From Phoronis australis (lineage: Eukaryota; Animalia; Phoronida): a DNA stretch of 64,000 nucleotides. Each line of letters begins with the position of its first letter. The first letter of the stretch is position 1. A program made the position numbers and the translations under genes. The DNA lies in the NCBI GenBank assembly GCA_002633005.1, contig NMRA01000047.1:188913-252912 (forward strand), in the 5' to 3' direction. Below the pieces are notes generated by a model, which saw nothing but the letters and a program-made list of their open reading frames with translations, had not been told where the DNA came from and made no database searches. Of the stretch, positions 15,155 to 58,111 are shown in pieces.

Positions 15155-15344
15155 CCCATACCCCTCTTGCCTCCAGTTTCATTCACCACAACCCACCCCA
15201 ATGCGCTACCCATTTCAGATACCATCGGGCACGGATGCTTGGGGTCCAGTGAATCAGTCCCAAGTAGCGACTCCACTGTTGCCTAAAACTACTACGTTTT
15301 TGGGAGTTTTCTACGTTGAATTCTCATTGATTGAAAATAAGTAG

Positions 15345-15758
15345 GGTGGGATCTTTTCATGCAATGCACCTAATTTAAGGACTAAGTCCCTAAATGTTTT
15401 GACTGAATTAAGAGCTCAGATTTTAGTTATATTATTATAAAACAACATAAGTCAAAAGAGGAGTTCATAATAAAGATAAAATGATAGAAAAATATAAAAA
15501 CTGTGAGTAAAGAACAAAAAAATGCCTAAAAGATTTACCAACTCAGTTGAGTACAGGCAGATCCAAGGTGGCAGGTTAAAGGGGTCTGGACCCCCCATTT
15601 TCCTTGATTGTAGTGATATCAATGCTAGAATTTTCAAATTGTTGACTTGGGCCACCTTTCTTAAAAAATCATTATCCGACCCCCCTCCCCCTTTAAAAAA
15701 TCCTGGATATGACCCTGTTGGGTCGATATTTGGGACAGTTTTATGTAAATGGGCACAG
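15345..15758. mobile_element. Diverged partial copy of the 20899-21323 MITE, interrupted by a CAGG...CCTG TIR MITE (~15553-15717)
   Basis: gggatcttttcatgcaatgcacctaatttaaggactaagtccct... matches 21086-21130, and the 3' end atttgggacagttttatgtaaa matches 21296-21317. The insert has TIR caggcagatccaagg / cctggatatgaccctg. Confidence 0.55.
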
Positions 15759-18791: not shown

Positions 18792-18815
18792 TTGTTCCAT
18801 TATTGTTGTTTTACT

Positions 18816-18866
<51 letters not shown>
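18816..18866. repeat. Compound microsatellite (TA)n(TG)n
   Basis: Seen directly. Confidence 0.95.
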
Positions 18867-18870
<4 letters not shown>

Positions 18871-19224
18871 GAAGACACGACTTTGATCTGTTTTTACTGG
18901 TTTAATTTCATTAGTGAAGTCCAACATGTAAAACAACTTCTAATAAGTAATGGTTACACAAATTCATTTGTGGATAAGCATATTAATCGGTTTGTCTCAA
19001 AAGTTGAACAACATCATCATGTACAAACATTTACTGTTAATGTTAAAAAACTGTTCTACCAAAGCTGCATATCCAAAACTTATGTACAAGATGAACAAGT
19101 CCTAAAGAACATAATATAAAACAATGTAAAAGTTGTTAGTCCTAATGACAAACTAGATGTAATTATTTATTACAAGAATATGAAGACCTCTAATTTAGTG
19201 ATGAGAAACAAACATACTAAAGGA

Positions 19225-20538
19225 CCTCTCAGACAGCTCTCAAATATATTTATCAAGAAACAACAACCAATTTACGGAATGGCAACTCTGCAGCCTGTCT
19301 AAGCCAGTGATTGAAACACAAAGATCAAGAAGTGAAACTATTCACAATCATGACTCAACAGAGAACCCTATAGAATCAGCTACTTCGTCATCCCGATATT
19401 AAGGAAGAAAAACGAAAAACCAACAAAGGATAAAAGATTTGGTCTTCGCAATGTTGGAAACACGTGTTTTGTGAACTCTACACTCCAAGCTATCTTTTCA
19501 TGTAACCTCAACTGGCACAAATACAATATCAACAAGAAAACCAAAATGAAAACCATCCTTGTGAACACATATGAAGCAACCAAAAGGTATACATCAACTC
19601 CGTCTGAAATTTTGAATAAACTAAGATTATAGAACAACTCTCTTGGCAACGGAAGTCAACAGGATGCCCATGAGTTTTTACTATGGTTACTGAACCAATG
19701 GCAAGAAGACACACTCGCTCACAACGCTGATAGTGTGTCGTCTGAGGTTACCAATACCTTCGAACACGTAAAAAAGAAAATTAGGAGTTGCAATAACTGC
19801 TCAATAACAAAGGTAAAAACACAAACTGGGAGTTGACTGTCTACCCCCCAACACTGAGGAGAGAAATATCTATGCAGGAGTTGTGGCAAAGCTTGTGGAC
19901 GTCGTTGGACATCGAAGACTTTAGAGTTGCCCACACTGTAATTGTCTCAGTGGCCAGCTCACTTAGTCATTATTTAAACCGCCAAAATACCTTTGTATTC
20001 ACGTCTTACGAACCGCCATTAATGGTCAAAAAATCAACACACAGATTTCCTCGTATGACCTCTTTGGCTATAAAATAATAGCAGTCATTGAACACCATGG
20101 AAGAAACACGACAGGTGGTCATTACACATGCTGTGTTAAATCGTCATCATGGGAATGGATAAATTTTGACGACTCTACAGTCACAAGTACATTCAAGCCT
20201 ACCCTGGATGCCTACATTGCAATAATTATACGAATTATCTTCTGAACTCCATAAAAGGAAATCAACGTAAAAATAAAGCGCACTTTCAACATAGACGTCA
20301 CAAATCACATCTGACGAAAACAAGTCAAGGTATTTTTGAAATTCATCCTGGTAAGGGAATTGGGGATAGGCCTATAAAAGATCCTAAACCCAGCCGCAGA
20401 GTGTGGAAAGCCGCGCACCGTACCAGTGACTGCTGGAAACTCATCGGAGACACAACTTTAACATCATTCGTCGGAGAGATAACTCTTGGGCTGGCTCCGG
20501 TAAGTCCATTCATTCTTGAATGATGTTTAGGTAAATTA
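19225..20538 (+). mobile_element. HERO-like RLE non-LTR retrotransposon, 5'-truncated copy 1 (post-RLE tail, USP domain, 3'UTR), inserted in Penelope copy A
   Basis: 19225-19401 matches 23082-23270 and 20270-20538 matches 23271-23545 of copy 2. Both copies end at ...tgaatgatgtttaggtaaatt. Penelope sequence resumes contiguously on either side (gagaaacaa | attagtcgtgagaagg). Confidence 0.88.
19435..20245 (+). pseudogene. Intronless ubiquitin-specific protease (peptidase C19/USP) domain carried inside the retrotransposon, disrupted
   Basis: Cys box GLRNVGNTCFVNSTLQAI (catalytic TGT 19465-19467); QQDAHEFLLWLL (19657 onward); fingers CNNC; His box YKIIAVIEHHGRNTTGGHYTCCVK (CAT 20120-20122); WINFDDSTV (20168-20173); DAYIA. 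There is an in-frame TAG at 19630 and frameshifts in 19830-20070. The catalytic boxes are absent from the ORF track. Confidence 0.92.
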
Positions 20539-20898
20539 GTCGTGAGAAGGTCGGCACTGTTGTTAGGTGTAATGTTGTTTATGAGTTTACTTTTCCCGCG
20601 GTCGAATATTTTCGTCCTCATCAGAAACAAAATTACATTGGACACACAGTGTGTTCCTTGTCACGACGACTTTCAATGTATTTACAAAACGGCTCCATAA
20701 AAGACCATTTTCAAAACCTTTATGGTCGCCAGATAACTCGTCCGGAGATTGTCGACAATACAGTCATTAGATACATTGAAAATGATGTACACAGGTTACG
20801 AACATTAGAGTGACCGCTTCTAATAATATCTGAAAACCCCAGTTTGAATGAACAGCTAACTGGAACTCGAAGGACTCTATCATTATTTAGGTGATCTG

Positions 20899-21323
20899 TG
20901 CTCGGTTGCGTGAAACAGTACCAAATAGGGATTCAACCAAGCTCCCTAAATTTACTGCGTATTTGTGAAAAAACCGATTGTCCTTCCTTATGATGTTTTA
21001 GTTTCATAACTAAGTCACCTTTTGGGTTTGATACAAATCGAGAGTGAACTCGACGTTGAATTCTCAATATTATCGAAAGTAAATAGGGATCATTTCATGC
21101 AACGCCCCTAATTTAGGGACCAAGTCCCTATTCATTTTCATTGAATTCAGGGCTCAGTTCTTTGTTATATTGTTAAAAATATCAATTAGTTAAACAGGAA
21201 CTCATAATAAAGTTGAATTGCCATAAAAAGTTTACATCTGTCAATGAGGAAAGACACAAATAGGCAAAAGATTTAGGGAACTTAGTTGAGTCCCTATTTG
21301 GGACTGTTTCGTGCAACCCGACA
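20899..21323. mobile_element. 425-bp MITE with ~52-bp imperfect TIRs and 3-bp TSD CTG (PIF/Harbinger-like)
   Basis: TIRs tgctcggttgcgtgaaacagtaccaaataggga..ccctaaat / atttaggg..tccctatttgggactgtttcgtgcaacccgaca. The empty site in Penelope copy B reads gtgatCTGtaga; the filled site has CTG on both sides. Confidence 0.85.
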
Positions 21324-21450
21324 CTGTAGACAGCAACGTATGTATATTTACATATTTGTGTTTTATCGTCATGGTTGTGAATGCCAACTTCACGTGTTAT
21401 ATTGCATTTGTCATTTCTGAAGTGCGTTTCACTGTGAACTAGTTGTAAAT

Positions 21451-21490
21451 AGTAACCTGAAGATGAGATATGTGTCTCGAAATATCGTTT
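21451..21490 (+). ncRNA. Minimal hammerhead ribozyme in the Penelope 3' pLTR
   Basis: aac-CTGAAGA-tGAGAtatgtgTCTC-GAAA-taTC-gtt: CUGANGA and GAAA cores, stem II, a tiny palindromic stem III and a 3-bp stem I. This is the known minimal HHR form of PLEs. Confidence 0.7.
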
Positions 21491-21648
21491 TTTAAATTCT
21501 GTTACCTACTGATATCGTTTGGATTTTTATTGCACTGGTGTGATGTAAAAACAAGATCTCTATTTAGAGAGTTGGAAAGAACTGAAATTAAACTAGTAAA
21601 AACATATCAAAGTCGGGTTTTCAATGAAATGAAATAAATATAAATGAA

Positions 21649-21673
21649 ATATATATATATATATATATATATA
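21649..21673. repeat. (TA)n microsatellite at the junction of the Penelope tail and HERO copy 2
   Basis: Seen directly. Confidence 0.9.
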
Positions 21674-23545
21674 AATCTGAAACACACGGAAAAAATATGG
21701 AATAAACTTGAGACAAAATTAAAAACAATGCTGGAAATTCTCGACAAAGACAGCACTAACGGTCCAACTAAAGCATGGATCTACAACAATGGTGTGGTTC
21801 CAAGGATTACGTGGGAATTCACAGTGTATGACTTCCCAGTGAGTTTCTCTAAAAAAACTTGAACATATATGCACAAAATATCTGAAACAATGGCTTGGAA
21901 TCAGTAAAATGTTAAGTAACACAGTTCTCTACAGATCTAAAGAGCATCTTGGTTTAGGCATGACTAGCCTAACAACCCATCTAAAGAAGATGCAAGTGGT
22001 CAAGTTTCACATCAACAAATACGCGAACGACCCTGAAACAAGGAAACTTTATATGGGTAAAGTTAAACAATTTTTCACGTCAAAACGGTGGAATGACATA
22101 AAAGAACTCGAAGAGAGAGAAAGGGATATAGTTCTGAATGAAATTTGTAATTCGAGAAGTCATAATGACAGGACTGGTTTGGGCTATAACACCAATAATA
22201 GAAAATTCATCAAGAACATGACAACTAAAGAACATAGAGCATCTATGACGGAACGTATACAGGAAGTCGACGAAAGTAAAGCACTCTTATATCTGTATAG
22301 CTGCGCCAAACAAGGGTTATGGCTCAGATGGGATGCAGTTATGTCACTTGATGTATCTTGGAGCAAGAGTCTCTATGCATGGAATCCGTCTCTCTTGGCA
22401 TTTAGGTTAAATGCCATACACGATATACTTCCAACATCACCAAATTTACATTTATGGAAACAATCGCCTTCTGAACGTTGCAACCTCTGCAGAACAGCTA
22501 AACGCACACTTCACCACATCCTCAGCAATTGCACAGTAGCATTAAATAATGGTCGCTACACTTGGCGACATGACCAAGTACTAGCAATAATATTTGATGC
22601 TATCAATGAAGTAGTTCAAAACCCTCCGAAGCCTGTAACTGAAACAGCAATCAGATTTATGTCAAAGAACGGTTTGAACTTCGGCAATAACAGAACAGAG
22701 CCGAAATTCAGTGAACAGGGCCACTTCCTGGCCAAGCCCAATGATTGGAAACTAATTAAAGATTGTACAGAAACGCCTCTTATATTCCCATCTGAAATAA
22801 CAGATTCTGCATTAAGACCTGACATTGTGCTATGGTCAATTCAGGAAAAAGAGCAGTTTTAATAGAACTTACAATACCAGCAGAAGACAATATGGAATCA
22901 GCACACCTGAGAAAAAGAATGAAATACACAAATCTCGTCGGTGAATGTGAAAATGCAGGATGGCAAACAGTCCTGTTCCCTGTTGAAGTCGGCAGTAGAG
23001 GCTTCATCTATAAATCATTAAAGAAGCTAAGGAATTTCCTCGAGGTCCCCAAAGAAATCAAAAAACAAACATACCAAACTGCCTCTCAGACAGCTCTCAG
23101 ATGTAGCTATACGATATATTTATCAAGAAACAACATCCAAGTTACAGAATGGCAACACTGCAACCTTTCTGAGCCTGTGATTGGAACGCAAAGAAGAGGT
23201 GAAACTATTCACAATCATGACTCAACAGAGAACCCTATATAAACAGCTACTTCGTCATCCCCGATATTAAAAAATATGGCGCACTTTCAACATAGACGTC
23301 GCAAATCACATCTGACGCAATTAAGTCAAGATATTTTTGAAATTCCTCGTGGTACGGGAATTGGGGATAGTTAGACCTATAAAATATCTTAAACCCAGCC
23401 GCAGAGCGTCTAAAGCCGCGCCCCGTACCAGTGACTGCTGGCAACTCATCGGAGACGCAACTTTAACATCCTTCGCCGCAGAGATAATAACTCTTGGCTG
23501 TCTCCGGTGAGTCCAATTATTCTTGAATGATGTTTAGGTAAATTT
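21674..23545 (+). mobile_element. HERO-like RLE non-LTR retrotransposon, 5'-truncated copy 2 (RT thumb, CCHC knuckle, PD-(D/E)xK endonuclease, 3'UTR; lacks the USP)
   Basis: ORFs 21644-21862, 21909-22862 and 22832-23242 are joined by frameshifts. Motifs: KAWIYNNGVVPRITW, QGLWLRW, LPTSPNLHLW, CNLC..TLHHILSNC, GRYTWRHDQVL, LRPDIVLWS, LIELTIPAE, RKRMKY, PVEVGSRG. This set is characteristic of HERO-clade elements. Confidence 0.92.
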
Positions 23546-25005
23546 TTGACAAATGCAATATAACACGTGAAGTTGGCATGCACAACTATGACGATAAAAA
23601 CACATATAAATATACATATGTTGCTGTGCAACATACTCTACAGATCACTTAAATAACGATAGAGTCCTTCGAGTTCCAGTTAGCTGCTCGTTCAAACTGG
23701 GTTTTTCAAGCATTATTAGAAGCGACTGTAATGTTCGTAACCTGTGTACATCCTTTTCAGTGTATCTAATGACTGTATTGTCGACAATCTCCTGACGAGT
23801 TATCTTGCGACCATGAACATTTTGTAAATGGTCTTTTATTGAACCGTATTGTAAATGCATTGAAGGTCGCCGTGACAAGGAACACACTGTGTGCCCAATG
23901 TAATTTTGTTTCCGATGAGGACGAAAACATTCGACCGCGGGACAAGTAAAATCATAAACAACATTACATCTACCAACGGTGCGGACCTTCTCACGACTAA
24001 TATTGTTTCTCACCACTAAATTAGAGGTCTTCATATTCTTGTAATAAATAATTACATCTAGTTTGTCATTAGGACTAACAACTTTTACATTATTATATAT
24101 TATGTTCTTTAGGATTTTTTTATCTTGTACAAAACTTTTGGACATGCAGTTTTATAGGACAGTTTTTTAACATTACCAGTAAATGTTTGTACACGATAAT
24201 GTTGTTCAACTTTTGAGACAAACCGATCAATGTGCTTATCCACAAATGAACTTGTGTAACCATTATTTATTGGAAGTTGTTTTACATGTTGAACTTTACT
24301 AATGAACAGTTTCTAGTCTGATGTAATAGTGTGAGCTGTCTTTAAGAGATTGACTAAAACAGCTATCTTATAACGCTCAGGACAGTCACTATCAGCATGG
24401 AGACAAATACCTTTGTCAATAGGCTTGTGATAAACTGATGTGATGAATCTTGTGTCTGAGTTACATATAAGTACATCTAGAAATGGTATCTTATGAATTT
24501 CAATACTGAATGGTCCTCAAGCACAGTTTTAAGCGATACCATTTCATCAAAATTACAATATACGAAAATATCATCAACATATCGATCATATATAGGAATG
24601 TGGTCAATGTTAGTTTTAATTCGTTTTTCAACTTCTGACATATAAAATTCAGCGAACGTTGGGTCTAATGGGGAACCCATACTTACACCGTCTTTCCGCA
24701 AAAATAGTTTACCATTTACATGTCGAAATGGTGCCTTCGTAGTTCAAGTTAATAGCATTTCTTTAAGTATGTCCTTAGGAATTTCAGGGGGTTTCAAATT
24801 TGGATGATTATAGACATTGTTAATAATAATGTCTTGGTTTCAAGTACTGGGACATTGGTGAATAACGACTCTGCATCCAGTGACATTGGTTGGCAGCCAG
24901 TAATAGGTACAGTGGTACGCAAAATCTCAAGGAAGACATCCCGTGACTTGATACTACACTGACTTTGAATATACGGCTTTATAATCTGATCAATACATAT
25001 TTTTG
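23546..25005 (-). mobile_element. Penelope-like retroelement copy B (partial RT and C-terminal GIY-YIG endonuclease), degraded
   Basis: RT motifs SLDAESLFTNVP (~24850-24885), GVSMGSPLDPTFAEFYM and RYVDDIF. GIY-YIG motifs VVYDFTCP..C..NYIGHT..LSRR..H, LLIMLEKPSLN. Contains stops and frameshifts. Confidence 0.93.
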
Positions 25006-25051
25006 CAACCTACAGTCTGTGGATGAATGTCTGCGTGAACACTAAATGCCT

Positions 25052-37403: not shown

Positions 37404-37457
37404 ATAGAGTTCTGTAGTTACTACCTTTGACCAGAGATATAAAAACCCAAAGCTGTT

Positions 37458-38705
37458 GTTTTTAGGCGCCCACATATTTATGTGCGGACACATTTAATGC
37501 CGTCATCTCCGTCCGTCGGGGCGGCGTCCAAAACCCTTTGACATACTTTCATGAAATTTGGCACATGTGTTCCATTCATGAATGGGATGGCATGAGCGAA
37601 CTTTCGGACAGATTTGACTACCGGTGTGCCCCCTAGTGGCAATTTTAATTTTTTACGCTTACGTTTGTATCTTCAAAAGTCCTTAACGGATTTTCAGGAA
37701 ATTTAATGTGTAGGCACCTATTAGTGGGGTGACGCTTTCTTTCCATTTTTGGATGGATTCGATGTAGTTTGCGCCACCTAGTGGCCAATTTTACTGTTAT
37801 CGAGTCTTTTTTTGCGTCCACCCCTCTATCAACCAAACCGCTCAACTAGGATGATTGTGAAAATTGGCATTATGTGCTTACTATAAAGAGGACAGTTGAC
37901 GATGATTTTCCGACGATTTCGACTTCTGCGGTGCCTCCTTGTGGCAATTTTGTTTTTGTTGCGCCTATGGCCGTATCTCCTAAACCATTCGCAGGATCTT
38001 TACTTGTGTATTCATATGATGTTGACTATAGATGATGACGACTTTCCCACAGATCTGACTACTGCTGTGCCCCCTAGTGGCAATTTTAGTTTTTTACGTT
38101 TAACTCAGTGTCTTCAAAGATCCTCAACAGATTTTCATAAAATTTTAAATATAGGCATCTATTGGTGTGATGACGCTATCTTTCTGTTTTCGGATGGAAT
38201 TGGGGTATTTTGCACCACCTAGTGGCCATTTTTGCTGTTTTCAAATCTTGTTTTTGCCGTCCACCCCTGTATCAACCAAATCATTTTGAAAATTGGCATA
38301 TATGTTCTCAGTGTGAAGACGACCTTTGATGGTGACTGACTCCTGTGGCGCCTCCTAGTGGTAGTTTTATTTTGCGCCCATAGTTGTATCTCCCAAACCC
38401 ACTGCAGGATCTTTACTAAATTTACTAAGTGTACTTATATAAAGATAACAACAGACGACGACGACTTTAACGCAGATCCAACGGATACTCGACAGTGGCA
38501 ATATCATTTTATTCTGTTTTCCTTTGTTTCTCTGAAGTTCCTTGACAGATTTTTATGAAATATGGCATGTTCCTGTTTTTGGATGGATTTTATGTTTTTG
38601 CGCCATCTTAAGTGGCCATTTTTGTGATAGAAATAAATAACCCTAAAAGCACACCATTTGCAATGCAATCGTGGGTGCATTTCAACACTCCGTGTTGCTC
38701 TTGTT
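37458..38705 (+). mobile_element. Helentron/HINE-like (DINE-1-type) non-autonomous element with internal ~440-bp tandem units, copy A
   Basis: Begins tttttaggcgcccacat, has a gtccgtc tract and ends tcgtgggtgcatttcaacactccgtgttgctcttgtt (subterminal IR plus 3' hairpin). Homologous to 56625-58111. Confidence 0.7.
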
Positions 38706-52077: not shown

Positions 52078-52674
52078 TTTAGTTCTCTTCCTTCATGTGA
52101 CATCAGCATGGTTCCTGACCTACATTACGAATGGACATTTGTTGACAACTGCCCTGAGTTGGAGTTGTTGATGGAAGGATAAAGAGAGCATTTTGATACA
52201 AGCAGCCATCATGTCATACAACAAAAACAAACCCAAAATAGGAGTAGGGTTCCCCTTTATTTTATCGAATGGACTTTTTGTGAGTGTCATGATTTTCCTT
52301 TACCAAGAAATGAGGGTGCCGAACAAAGAGCTGAATAAATATAAATGGCAGCGTTTACGTGACAGACAATCTATTTTGTTTTAAATCTTTTATTTGCTCA
52401 GTCTAAAGCTTCCTGCGTGATCGATATTTCAATCATGTCACAGTAATAATAGCATGTACCAAGCCAAGCATGAGTTCTTCTCAAATGTCTTGTAGTGTAT
52501 TCCTCAGTGTTGTGATATTGGCTTTTTAAGTCTATTTGCTTATCTTGTAAAAATGTGATTATGAAGTCTTATTCATTGATTCGCCAAAGGCCAAATTCTG
52601 TTTTATCCGAAAGTGCTTTATAATTGCTCTGATATTTTGCACTTTTTGTATTCCTACCGTAAACTCATTTTCGT

Positions 52675-53429
52675 ATTTGTGGAACTGCCCAAAACAAAAA
52701 TTAATAATTCAGAGTCTTAATTGATTGATGGTTGTCATTTTAATGCTAAAATTTTAAAACATCTTATGCACAATACTTGTTAAGTTTGTAGCATCACTTT
52801 GTTACACAGATCATTTAGTTGAAATGTATTCTACTTCTTTCCGCCTGGTTTTCATCAAATACACTTTAGACATATGATTAGTTAACCTAGGGTATAACTT
52901 GGCTGAGTTATGAAGTGCTTAATCAGTTCCAGTCTTTCCCATTTCCACAGGGTGGGTAACTCCATGCAGTTTGTCTGATGGTGAATTTCTCTAACTTGTA
53001 CTCACCTGTGATACTTGGCACTTGGTTAGCTGTCATTCATTGCAGAGAATCTAGGCTCCAACTAAATTGACATCTGATGTCGACTTTACACACTTTGTGT
53101 TAAGTTGTTAAATTTTCATTTTTTTGGTTTTCAAAAACTTCTAAAAAGGCAATGCCCCTGAAATACGCTTGAGTTCTTCTATTTGAGTTAATGCTTTTGT
53201 GTTTGTTTTAAAGGAGATGTCGTCTCTTGTGTATGGCGGGCCTGTCAACTCATATCGCCAATCCAACAACAACAATAACAAGACCAGCTTGCAGTCACAT
53301 GACCTTGAACAGCCAATGGATGTAGATGATGAAGCCCCAAACATCAATGGCAACAACCTAGAGAACGACTCTCAGTTATGGCAGTTTCTTCGTCCAGTTG
53401 CCAGTGTTTACCCGCAAGCTGTGTTCAAA
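52675..53429 (+). other. Near-identical duplicate of ~53474-54237 (includes a truncated copy of the NSUN7 exon at 53214-53429); probable uncollapsed haplotype at a contig join
   Basis: The tandem copy stops exactly at the single N (53430). The exon portions appear identical, with small indels in the intron portion. Confidence 0.8.
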
Positions 53430-54020
53430 NGTGCAATTGTGGGCGCATTTCAACGCTCCGCGTTGCTCTTGTCTTATTTGTGGAACTGCCCAAAAACAAA
53501 AATTAATAATTCAGAGTCTTAATTGATTGATGGTTGTCATTTTAATGCTAAAATTTTAAAACATCTTATGCACAATACTTGTTAATCCTGACAATAATAT
53601 TTGTAGCATCACTTAGGTACACAGATCATTTAGTTGAAATGTATTCTACTACTTTCCGCCTGGTTTTCATCAAATACACTTTAGACATAAGTTAACCTAG
53701 GGTATAACTTGGCTGAGTTATGAAGCGCTTAATCAGTTCCAGTCTTTCCCATTTCCACAGGGTGGGTAACTCCTTGCAGTTTGTCTGATGGTGAATTTCT
53801 CTAACTTGTACTCACCTGTGATACTTGGCACTTGGTTATAGCTGTCATTCATTGCAGAGAATCTAGGCTCCAACTAAATTGACATCTGATGTCGACTTTT
53901 CACACTTTGTGTTAAGTTGTTAAATTTTCCTTTTTTTGGTTTTCAAAACCTTCTAGAAAGGCAATGCCCCTGAAATACAGTTCTTCTATTTGAGTTAATG
54001 CTTTTGTGTTTGTTTTAAAG

Positions 54021-54420
54021 GAGATGTCGTCTCTTGTGTATGGCGGGCCTGTCAACTCATATCGCCAATCCAACAACAACAATAACAAGACCAGCTTGCA
54101 GTCACATGACCTTGAACAGCCAATGGATGTAGATGATGAAGCCCCAAACATCAATGGCAACAACCTAGAGAACGACTCTCAGTTATGGCAGTTTCTTCGT
54201 CCAGTTGCCAGTGTTTACCCGCAAGCTGTGTTCAAACATGCGGGTACGCTGTATTCAGCATTAAAACATGACATTGAGAGGCCCGAGGATGAGCATGACT
54301 TCGTGCGACAGAAGCAGAAAAAGAAAATGGCCGCTCAACATGTGATTGTTCCCCACATTGACTTCAGTAGTGGTCAGGAGAAACGACTGACCTATCAGCT
54401 GGCGTTTAACACACTCAAAT
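54021..54420 (+). CDS. NSUN7: NSUN7-like putative RNA m5C methyltransferase family protein, exon (in-frame ATG at 54024)
   Basis: Acceptor ttttaaAG|, donor |GTAAGC (phase 1). YPQAVFKHAGTLYSAL...RLTYQLAFNTLKY resembles the NSUN7 N-terminus (human YPDSVYVMAANIF...RLSYELAFSALKY, recalled from memory). Confidence 0.88.
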
Positions 54421-56472: not shown

Positions 56473-56624
56473 GTAAGACTTTCAGTGGGTGACGGTAAGA
56501 ACCCATTGTATACTGACCTGATAAAACAAATATGGAGACTTACACCTAGGTTTATTGATGTGAACTTGTTGTTTAATGATAAAAATCGTTTCAGTATTGG
56601 TCTCTCAGCTAGTCAAAAGTTGAT

Positions 56625-58111
56625 GTTTATGCGCCCACATATTTATATATTATATGGACGCATTATGCCGTCATCTCCGTCCGTCCGTCCGGGCGGGCGG
56701 CGTCCAGCGTCCGCTGCTGTATCTCCAAAACCCTTTGACATTATGAGGTTCATGAAATTTGGCACATATGTTCCATTCATGATTGGGACGGCATGTGTGA
56801 ACTTTCGGACGGATCCGAATACCGGTGTGCCCCCTAGTGGCAATTTTAGTTTTTTACACTTACCTTTGTATCTTCTTTCATGAAATTTGGTATGTAGTGA
56901 GATGACGTTTTATCCTCCCGTTTTCGGATGGATTCGACATAGTTTGCGCCACCTAGTGGTCATTTTTAGTGTTTTCGAGTCTGTTTTTGTGCGTCCACCC
57001 CTCTATCAACCAAACCGCTCAAAGGATGATTGTGAAAATTGGTGTGTATATGCTTACTATGTAGAGGACGGTTGACAATGATTTTCAGACGATGTGGACT
57101 ACTGTGGGGCCTCCTAGTGGCAGTTTGTTTTTTTGCGCCTATGGCTGTATCTCCTAAACCGTTCGCAGGATCTTTACGAAATTTAATAAGTGTATTGATA
57201 TGATGTTAACAACAGACGATGACGACTTTTGGACGGATCCGCCTACCAGTGTGCCCCCTAGTGGCAATTTTATTTTTTCACGTTTACCTCTGTATCTTCA
57301 CAAGTCCTTAACGGATTTTCATGAAATTTGGTATGTAGGCACCTATTAGTGCGTTGACGCTATCCTCCCGTTTTCGGATGGATTCGACCTAGTTTGCGAC
57401 ACCCAGTGGCCATTTTTACTGTTTTTGAGTCTGTTTTTTGGCGTCCACCCCTCTATCAACCAAACCGCTATAAGTATGATTGTGAAAATTGGCATGTATG
57501 TTCTTACTATGAAGAGGACGGTTGACGCTGAATTTCCCATGACTTTGATTACTGTGGCGCCTCCTAGTGGCAGTTTTTTTTTGCGCCCATGGCTGTATCT
57601 CCCAAACCGTTTGCAGGATCTTTACTAAATTTAGCAAGTGTATTTATGTGATGTTGACAACGGACGATGACGACTTTAGGATGATTCTGACTACCGGTAT
57701 GCCTCTAGTGGCAATTTTAGTATTTTACATTGACCTCTGTATTTTCATAGGTCTTCAGGTGTATACTTTGTGTTACTTCGTGACTATGAAGGAAAAGTTC
57801 CAAGTAGAAATTTGTTTCTGGCATTCTAATGCTGTGCTAATCTCGTATGTTGGTAAATTTGTTTTTAATTCTATGTTTCTGTGGTGCTTTAAGCAACTGA
57901 TGTATAGGATGTGCTTGTATTATGAAGATCACTCACATTTTGCCTCTAGCCTATTGAGGAGACAATGACCATGCCTTTCCATTTTGCAAAGTACAACATA
58001 CTACATATATGCCCTCTACTGGCCACTTTATGGTACCAGTAAACAACCCTAGAAGGATACCGTATAAGGTGCAATTGTGGGCGCATTTCAACGCTCTGCG
58101 TTGCTCTTGTT
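56625..58111 (+). mobile_element. Helentron/HINE-like element copy B (in an NSUN7 intron)
   Basis: tttatgcgcccacat ... (gtcc)n ... tandem ~430-bp units ... attgtgggcgcatttcaacgctctgcgttgctcttgtt. Subterminal IR atgcgcccaca/tgtgggcgcat plus 3' hairpin caacgc-tct-gcgttg. Confidence 0.75.

Follow-up and report, generated by a model that had tools for sequence, protein, structure and literature searches.

Two element copies and the USP domain

The window under study, a stretch of 64,000 nucleotides (nt) of Phoronis australis DNA (contig NMRA01000047.1, positions 188,913 to 252,912 of the forward strand), revealed the composition of AT-rich eukaryotic DNA and contains two copies of one retrotransposon, for which an earlier note, made from the letters alone, had proposed a HERO-like element with a ubiquitin-specific protease (USP) fused behind its restriction-like endonuclease (RLE). 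Self-comparison aligned the two copies in two blocks, namely 19206-19402 with 23063-23270 (83% identity) and 20269-20537 with 23270-23544 (88%), so that copy 1 starts at about 19206 rather than at 19225, where it had been placed before. The two copies have their last base in common but begin at different places within the element, and they have no long terminal repeats (LTRs), as expected of 5'-truncated insertions. The zinc knuckle and RLE found in copy 2 identify an RLE-type non-LTR retrotransposon, the core of its reverse transcriptase (RT) being absent from the window and present in the intact relatives described below. The features are collected in Table 1.

Between the common blocks, copy 1 carries about 870 nt in which both halves matched Pfam UCH over the curated cut-off (5.6e-19 and 1.7e-12). 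The motifs reported earlier were all found in place, i.e., FGLRNVGNTCF from 19438, QQDAHEF, two CxxC, HHG..GGHY and FDD (20165-73), with the catalytic positions Cys 19465-67, His 20120-22 and Asp-Asp 20168-73, which together assign the domain to the USP family (peptidase C19). The earlier description as an intronless domain of about 270 codons thus held as far as its presence is concerned (about 260 codons), but the frame is not open: it is broken by stops at 19630 and 19964 and by frameshifts at about 19823 and 19923, none of which had been listed, nor had a loss of 13 nt at the RLE end. The first half found USP46/USP12 as its top PDB matches, weakly (1.6e-12), and with at most 29% identity to any USP in the tree set described below, no donor could be assigned.

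At the junction behind the RLE tail the copies differ as previously described, with GAA and three C in copy 1 and TAA and four C in copy 2. The loss of one base behind 19391 puts only copy 1 out of frame, and copy 2 has a stop at 23240 as well as frameshifts near 21851 and 22845. Since only one of the two copies in the window carries the USP, a one-off host USP retrocopy inserted into copy 1 had to be considered as well.

Regarding the insertion sites, of which the window offers two only, both lie in or beside one Penelope-like repeat at different positions. Copy 1 splits a Penelope-like fragment whose unbroken sister lies at 24306-23640; its 5' junction revealed about 6 nt of microhomology, and inspection of the insertion junctions showed neither a poly(A) nor a clear target duplication for copy 1. 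Rfam gave nothing above chance in 18800-24400, neither in the 3' untranslated region (3'UTR) nor at the insertion sites. Penelope-like fragments were located at 23547-25009 (minus strand), 18868-19211, 20535-20899 and 21330-21625, and an RT piece at 24480-24743 matched RVT_1 (7.3e-06). The stretch 23645-24151, which we take to read as GIY-YIG-like, had no Pfam match.

Table 1. Features of the two element copies and of the host fragment split by copy 1 (positions in the window)
Feature	Position	Strand	Remarks
Copy 1	19206..20537	+	5'-truncated; RLE end, linker, USP, 3'UTR; inside Penelope-like fragment
Last RLE helix and linker of copy 1	19206..19437	+	13-nt loss near 19242
USP/C19 domain	19438..20224	+	in copy 1; intronless, about 260 codons
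3'UTR common to copies 1 and 2	20269..20537	+	88% identity in self-comparison
Copy 2	21692..23545	+	5'-truncated, begins in RT thumb region; CCHC knuckle, RLE, linker, 3'UTR; USP deleted
CCHC zinc knuckle	22479..22532	+	copy 2; C-x2-C-x8-H-x4-C; zf-RVT 1.3e-05, under curated cut-off
RLE	22740..23146	+	copy 2; PD at 22818-23, ELT, RKRMKY
USP-loss junction of copy 2	23262..23270	+	corresponds to copy 1 19394 to 20269, 874 nt; short TAA microhomology
Left half of split Penelope-like fragment	18907..19211	+	92% to 24306-24003; outside element
Right half of split Penelope-like fragment	20535..20899	+	90% to 24001-23640; outside element

Family layout in contigs and RNA reads

Contigs and RNA reads of runs labelled as the same species were aligned to the locus, X1 to X3 being one sample and maybe the source of the window itself. 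The library type of the RNA runs is unspecified and they were used with no control gene, so that the strand of the RNA relative to the element is not fixed. Most breaks of copy 1 turned out to be absent from the family. The stop at 19630 was missing (T>C) in 65/66 and 64/64 plus-mate RNA reads and in contigs at a depth of 1552 of 1552, and the stop at 19964 (19965 A>G) in 45/45 and 24/24 RNA reads, while two bases at 19923 were omitted in 23/36 and 19/27. The extra C behind 19391 was detected in an X3 contig (depth 49.3 of 58.1), in 17/35 RNA reads of X5 and in 4/4 of X7; as this contig extends only about 10 letters to the left of the C, the RNA reads are the better bridge. The stop at 23240 of copy 2 was absent from 3 and 4 contigs and from 12/12 and 8/8 plus-mate RNA reads. 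The read-through of a GAA + CCCC consensus from RLE into USP, as predicted before, was therefore borne out by contigs and reads alike.

The same holds for the other end of the domain, where a contig joint at a depth of 3038 connects the USP end (20224) to the 3'UTR (23268). The USP-less joint of copy 2 (19394 to 20269, 874 nt) was seen at a depth of 8.8 in a single contig of X3 and in 2 RNA reads. Because the breaks are mostly absent and the USP joins both the RLE tail and the 3'UTR in contigs and reads, the USP is a feature of the family and not a one-off insert. Copy 1 represents the family layout, and copy 2 is a deletion of the USP. Most of the family carries the USP and has no stop ahead of it, so that neither outcome named as speaking against the fusion was observed. 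A host retrocopy in copy 1 is refuted by these high-depth contigs and RNA reads, which hold the USP between RLE tail and 3'UTR, as well as by the nearest relatives P0005 and P0059 (97 in the Shimodaira-Hasegawa-like approximate likelihood ratio test, SH-aLRT), which share the layout, and its probability is close to nil. Collapsed contigs had depths of about 1300-1500 compared to 23-47 for single ones, suggesting tens of copies in the genome, though depth is no copy number. RNA depth was 25-80 over the RLE tail and USP and 0-5 upstream, with nearly all reads on one strand.

Two variants of the layout were observed in addition. A linker form lacking about 50 nt (19321-19392) appeared in an X2 contig (depth 114) and a few RNA reads, representing either another subfamily or a deletion derivative. 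In the distal 3'UTR (23288-23500 and 20483-20540), contig depth was more than 10 times that of the coding part, the RNA strand bias was opposite, and differing loose ends occurred at 23497; a high-copy non-autonomous element or short interspersed nuclear element (SINE) with the same tail is the likely source.

Further repeats were recorded elsewhere in the window. The segments 20904-21320 and 15310-15552 belong to a very high-copy repeat with inverted ends, like miniature inverted-repeat transposable elements (contig depth 20000-94000 in X1), and 37449-38570 and 56616-57757 are two arrays of a repeat of about 430 nt that are 70-81% alike. A tandem duplication of 770 nt at 52668-54241 (95%), whose two units meet at one N at 53430, is probably an assembly overlap.

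Relatives with a deubiquitinase behind the endonuclease

Searching longer proteins with the open reading frame (ORF) of copy 2 resulted in 13 matches, with P0005 (1523 residues, 47% identity) as the best and a USP-less protein from Mnemiopsis as a neighbour. P0005 is a single intact ORF with RT (350-612), knuckle, RLE and UCH (1226-1513), and P0011 has the same domain order, while P0007 carries a partial JAB domain at its end. Such ORFs in public assemblies realise the order RT-knuckle-RLE-USP that had been postulated for the active ancestor. Using P0005 960-1523, a query which itself bears the USP, we obtained 39 matches, namely 15 retrotransposon proteins that end in a UCH domain, counting the query itself, 4 that lack it and 20 host USPs. 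An RLE-only query, which cannot favour USPs, retrieved 2026 representatives; among the best 150, UCH lay behind the RLE in 9, and the sole other C-terminal family was one kinesin chimera. P0007 900-1258 resulted in 7 matches, including P0268 and P0269 (RT-RLE-JAB), P0271 and P0272 (UCH, i.e., 2/7) and P0273. Overall, the searches yielded 26 USP-bearing and 3 JAMM-bearing RLE-type entries, a few of them close kin across two libraries, so that the expectation of USPs downstream of the RLE in relatives was confirmed with the best match of copy 2 among them. In all carriers the deubiquitinase (DUB) sits directly behind the nuclease. Several of their clusters contain repeated full-length members, and that of P0272 has 593 members, some on megabase contigs.

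The RT of the intact relatives had R2 as its best PDB match (1e-33). Among the USPs, that of P0019 was closest to USP8 (1.9e-70), and the matches of P0005 and P0272 were weak. In P0268 and P0269 the JAB domain keeps HTH..SxxD intact and has the MPN+ motif (E..HxH..SxxD) with the insertions typical of AMSH; P0268 matched solved STAM-binding protein/AMSH over 174 residues (1226-1399, 3.7e-55), including HTH, SSVD and the C/HPH second zinc site. In the ESM Atlas, P0005 960-1523 led to a single candidate (0.93), a 72-member UCH cluster in which Cnidaria are commonest (with the phylum known for 6), and P0268 had no usable match there; a single-sequence AlphaFold model of P0059 reached a predicted local distance difference test (pLDDT) score of 33, without a usable fold. 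P0273, an RLE element of the fish HERO-like clade with 23 cluster members, harbors an Ulp1 (C48) N-terminal to its RT and is, judged by its domains, an Ulp1 capture outside the nematode NeSL/Utopia elements.

Alignment of 20 element USPs, one of them cut short, revealed that Cys, His and the following Asp are kept in 19/19 complete domains, although USPs of different clades are less than 30% identical. In 4/4 related pairs the DUB was more conserved than the linker in front of it (50/35, 61/44, 78/40 and 43/33%). That the DUB is neutral cargo, gained by template switching or 3' transduction and hitchhiking without function, would fit its dispensability in many clades, its loss in copy 2 and the several donors. 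We consider this very unlikely, as only catalytic domains were captured and fused in frame, their catalytic residues were maintained over large divergence, the DUB was more conserved than the linker in all four pairs, and two unrelated folds of the same activity occupy the slot.

The linkers also bear on a further suggestion of the earlier note, that the DUB might process the element's own polyprotein. Viral DUBs often do so (PMC9741609), and NeSL/Utopia elements have an Ulp1-like protease (PMC4640811). Among the 25 linkers (the boundary failed for P0021), no common Gly-Gly self-cleavage site was detected, GG occurring in 5/25, with one of these in what looks like an aligned context, confined to two closely related proteins. 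Moreover, an AMSH-type JAMM metalloenzyme can take the slot, and a single ORF has no structural proteins to release, which leaves a processing protease hardly probable.

For phylogenetic analysis, the region from RT thumb to RLE was used (40 rows, LG+G4, unrooted quick tree; 21 redundant, short or long-branch rows dropped, and 3 earlier), with no named HERO, R2, R4 or NeSL sequences and with rows lacking a DUB that may include cut proteins. USP carriers appeared in four places. The window element grouped with P0005 and P0059 near the JAMM pair, and a well-supported branch (100 SH-aLRT) separated it from fish HERO-like proteins. By the approximately unbiased (AU) test, a single clade of USP carriers was rejected (p-AU 8e-13), as was a single clade of all DUB carriers (2e-81). 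As carriers do not form one clade, the slot has been filled, swapped or emptied more than once, events that an unrooted tree cannot tell apart. In a tree of the USPs themselves, with host sampling limited to USP8-like and plant UBP23-like proteins, one element clade grouped with host USP8 (95/93), and the window USP formed a long branch without supported neighbours. The hypothesis that all element USPs go back to one origin was not rejected (p-AU 0.275). Taken together, the sequences make at least two captures certain, one of a USP and one of a JAMM, and suggest several separate USP captures.

Proposed function and comparison with known systems

Given its conserved catalytic residues, the tethered USP of the window family is predicted to be an active deubiquitinase. 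With about even confidence, we propose that it clears ubiquitin chains added by the host off the protein of the element or off its ribonucleoprotein (RNP), which would thus survive until insertion. The element would move by target-primed reverse transcription, as other RLE elements do, its protein binding its own RNA, so that the fused DUB would travel with the RNP and act mainly in cis via the flexible linker of 45-230 residues. Host E3 ligases would tag the RT-RLE protein, as shown only for human L1 ORF2p, and the DUB would reverse the tag. AMSH prefers K63 chains, and a literature search on its specificity residues gave nothing. As the slot also accepts an AMSH-like domain, the tag likely comprises K63 chains (autophagy or signalling) in addition to K48 (proteasome). 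Two donors are recognisable, AMSH (P0007, P0268, P0269) and USP8 (P0019 clade), both STAM/ESCRT-0-associated endosomal DUBs, perhaps an indication that clearance proceeds through lysosomes or autophagy. As for precedents, TRIM41/cGAS put K48 chains on L1 ORF2p, which is thereby degraded (PMC10716122), and the VTD domains of Helitrons have DUB activity, which was suggested to help the transposon past a restriction of its inheritance (PMC9741609).

Two other roles of an active DUB have to be weighed. It could act at the insertion site, to which the RT-RLE would carry it. There it would erase ubiquitin that was placed near the nick, on chromatin or repair factors, in response to damage or for silencing, and reverse transcription could be completed before being aborted by repair. 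Its place directly behind the nuclease in all carriers would suit this, as would the replacement of USP by an AMSH-like domain, K63 chains being damage signals, and the USP46/USP12 matches of the window USP, since these enzymes act on histones and in repair. That match is weak, however, and no host USP is supported as a relative of the window USP, while the best donors of other clades, USP8 and AMSH, are endosomal enzymes; we regard this role as possible but unlikely. Alternatively, the DUB could work in trans and damp ubiquitin-dependent innate or germline surveillance signalling triggered by element RNA or cDNA, much as DUBs of viruses and bacteria act against defences that rely on ubiquitin (PMC9741609). 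The abundance of RNA reads over the USP part would fit short USP-only transcripts, but the strand of this RNA is not fixed. Fusion to a low-abundance RNA-bound protein would rather suit action in cis, and with a function in trans USP-less copies could cheat and no fixed position would be needed, so that we think a role in trans quite doubtful.

Several observations weigh against the removal of chains from the element's own RNP by a conserved DUB. The RNA reads stem from mixed copies, some of them broken (e.g., a one-base loss at 20160 in 19/41 reads of X5), and cover mainly RLE tail and USP with little upstream and no fixed strand. In 3/3 USP pairs, RT and RLE are better conserved than the USP. 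Of the best 150 RLE matches, 141 show no USP, many of them being fragments or ending at the RLE, and the query P0005 960-1523 favours intact USPs. Whole clades, including the fish elements, end right behind the RLE and most relatives are without the domain, so that the DUB is dispensable. Finally, the L1 precedent concerns an element of the apurinic/apyrimidinic endonuclease (APE) type in mammals.

On balance, it seems to us an evenly poised possibility that RLE retrotransposons include a broad undescribed group whose C-terminus serves as a modular slot for counter-defence, into which catalytic domains of host DUBs entered on several independent occasions. These domains would represent two unrelated folds, i.e., an AMSH-type JAMM and several USPs, of which one stems from USP8, and would mark ubiquitin tagging of retrotransposon proteins as an ancient, general host restriction with an antidote encoded by long interspersed nuclear elements (LINEs). 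LINEs are thought to encode little beyond their insertion machinery, and human L1 is the main case in which restriction of a LINE protein by ubiquitin was demonstrated. If retrotransposons encode a DUB that stayed intact in highly divergent families and changed between two unrelated folds, this would provide direct evolutionary evidence of a ubiquitin arms race between host and retrotransposon, which a single point mutation in an intact element could test. The element DUBs would also offer compact new enzymes and, for the stabilisation of R2-type gene-insertion proteins, a design taken from nature.

Searching the open literature, with Repbase, Dfam, subscription journals and supplements outside the scope and an entry there possible, we did not encounter a USP or JAMM at the C-terminus of any RLE retrotransposon, nor did the accessible part of PMC3417536 contain such a case; the word ubiquitin has no occurrence in two recent R2/RLE papers (PMC13188248 and PMC13708176). 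A transposon-encoded DUB as such has a published precedent in Helitrons. Helinoto is reportedly the subject of a further paper, cited by its title in PMC7599744. Helitrons and Helentrons resemble the window family in a transposon ORF with fused, catalytically intact DUB domains (OTU and VTD), for which activity on K48/K63 chains was shown and an anti-restriction role proposed (PMC9741609). In contrast, they are DNA rolling-circle transposons with different folds, and PMC9741609 mentions retrotransposons 0 times.

Among RLE elements, those of the HERO clade share with the window family one ORF with RT, CCHC knuckle and C-terminal RLE as well as 5'-truncated copies, and are mostly not site-specific (PMC4640811, PMC9004415). 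HERO was described from sea urchin, lancelet and fish, with no protease mentioned in the accessible part (PMC9004415). The window family, for which HERO-like is a candidate label, differs by the DUB behind its RLE and by its branch apart from the fish elements. The fish proteins among the copy 2 homologs are presumably of HERO type. NeSL and Utopia-1_TSP are alike in that an RLE element carries a protease of the ubiquitin/SUMO system, an Ulp1-like (C48) one N-terminal to the RT (PMC4640811). In the window family and its relatives the protease is a USP (C19) or JAMM placed C-terminal to the RLE, and Rfam revealed no U2 or spliced-leader target at the insertion sites. Compared to host USP8 and AMSH/STAMBP, to which one USP clade (95/93) and the JAMM (3.7e-55) are related, the element versions consist of the catalytic domain only, are intronless and are fused to a retrotransposon protein.

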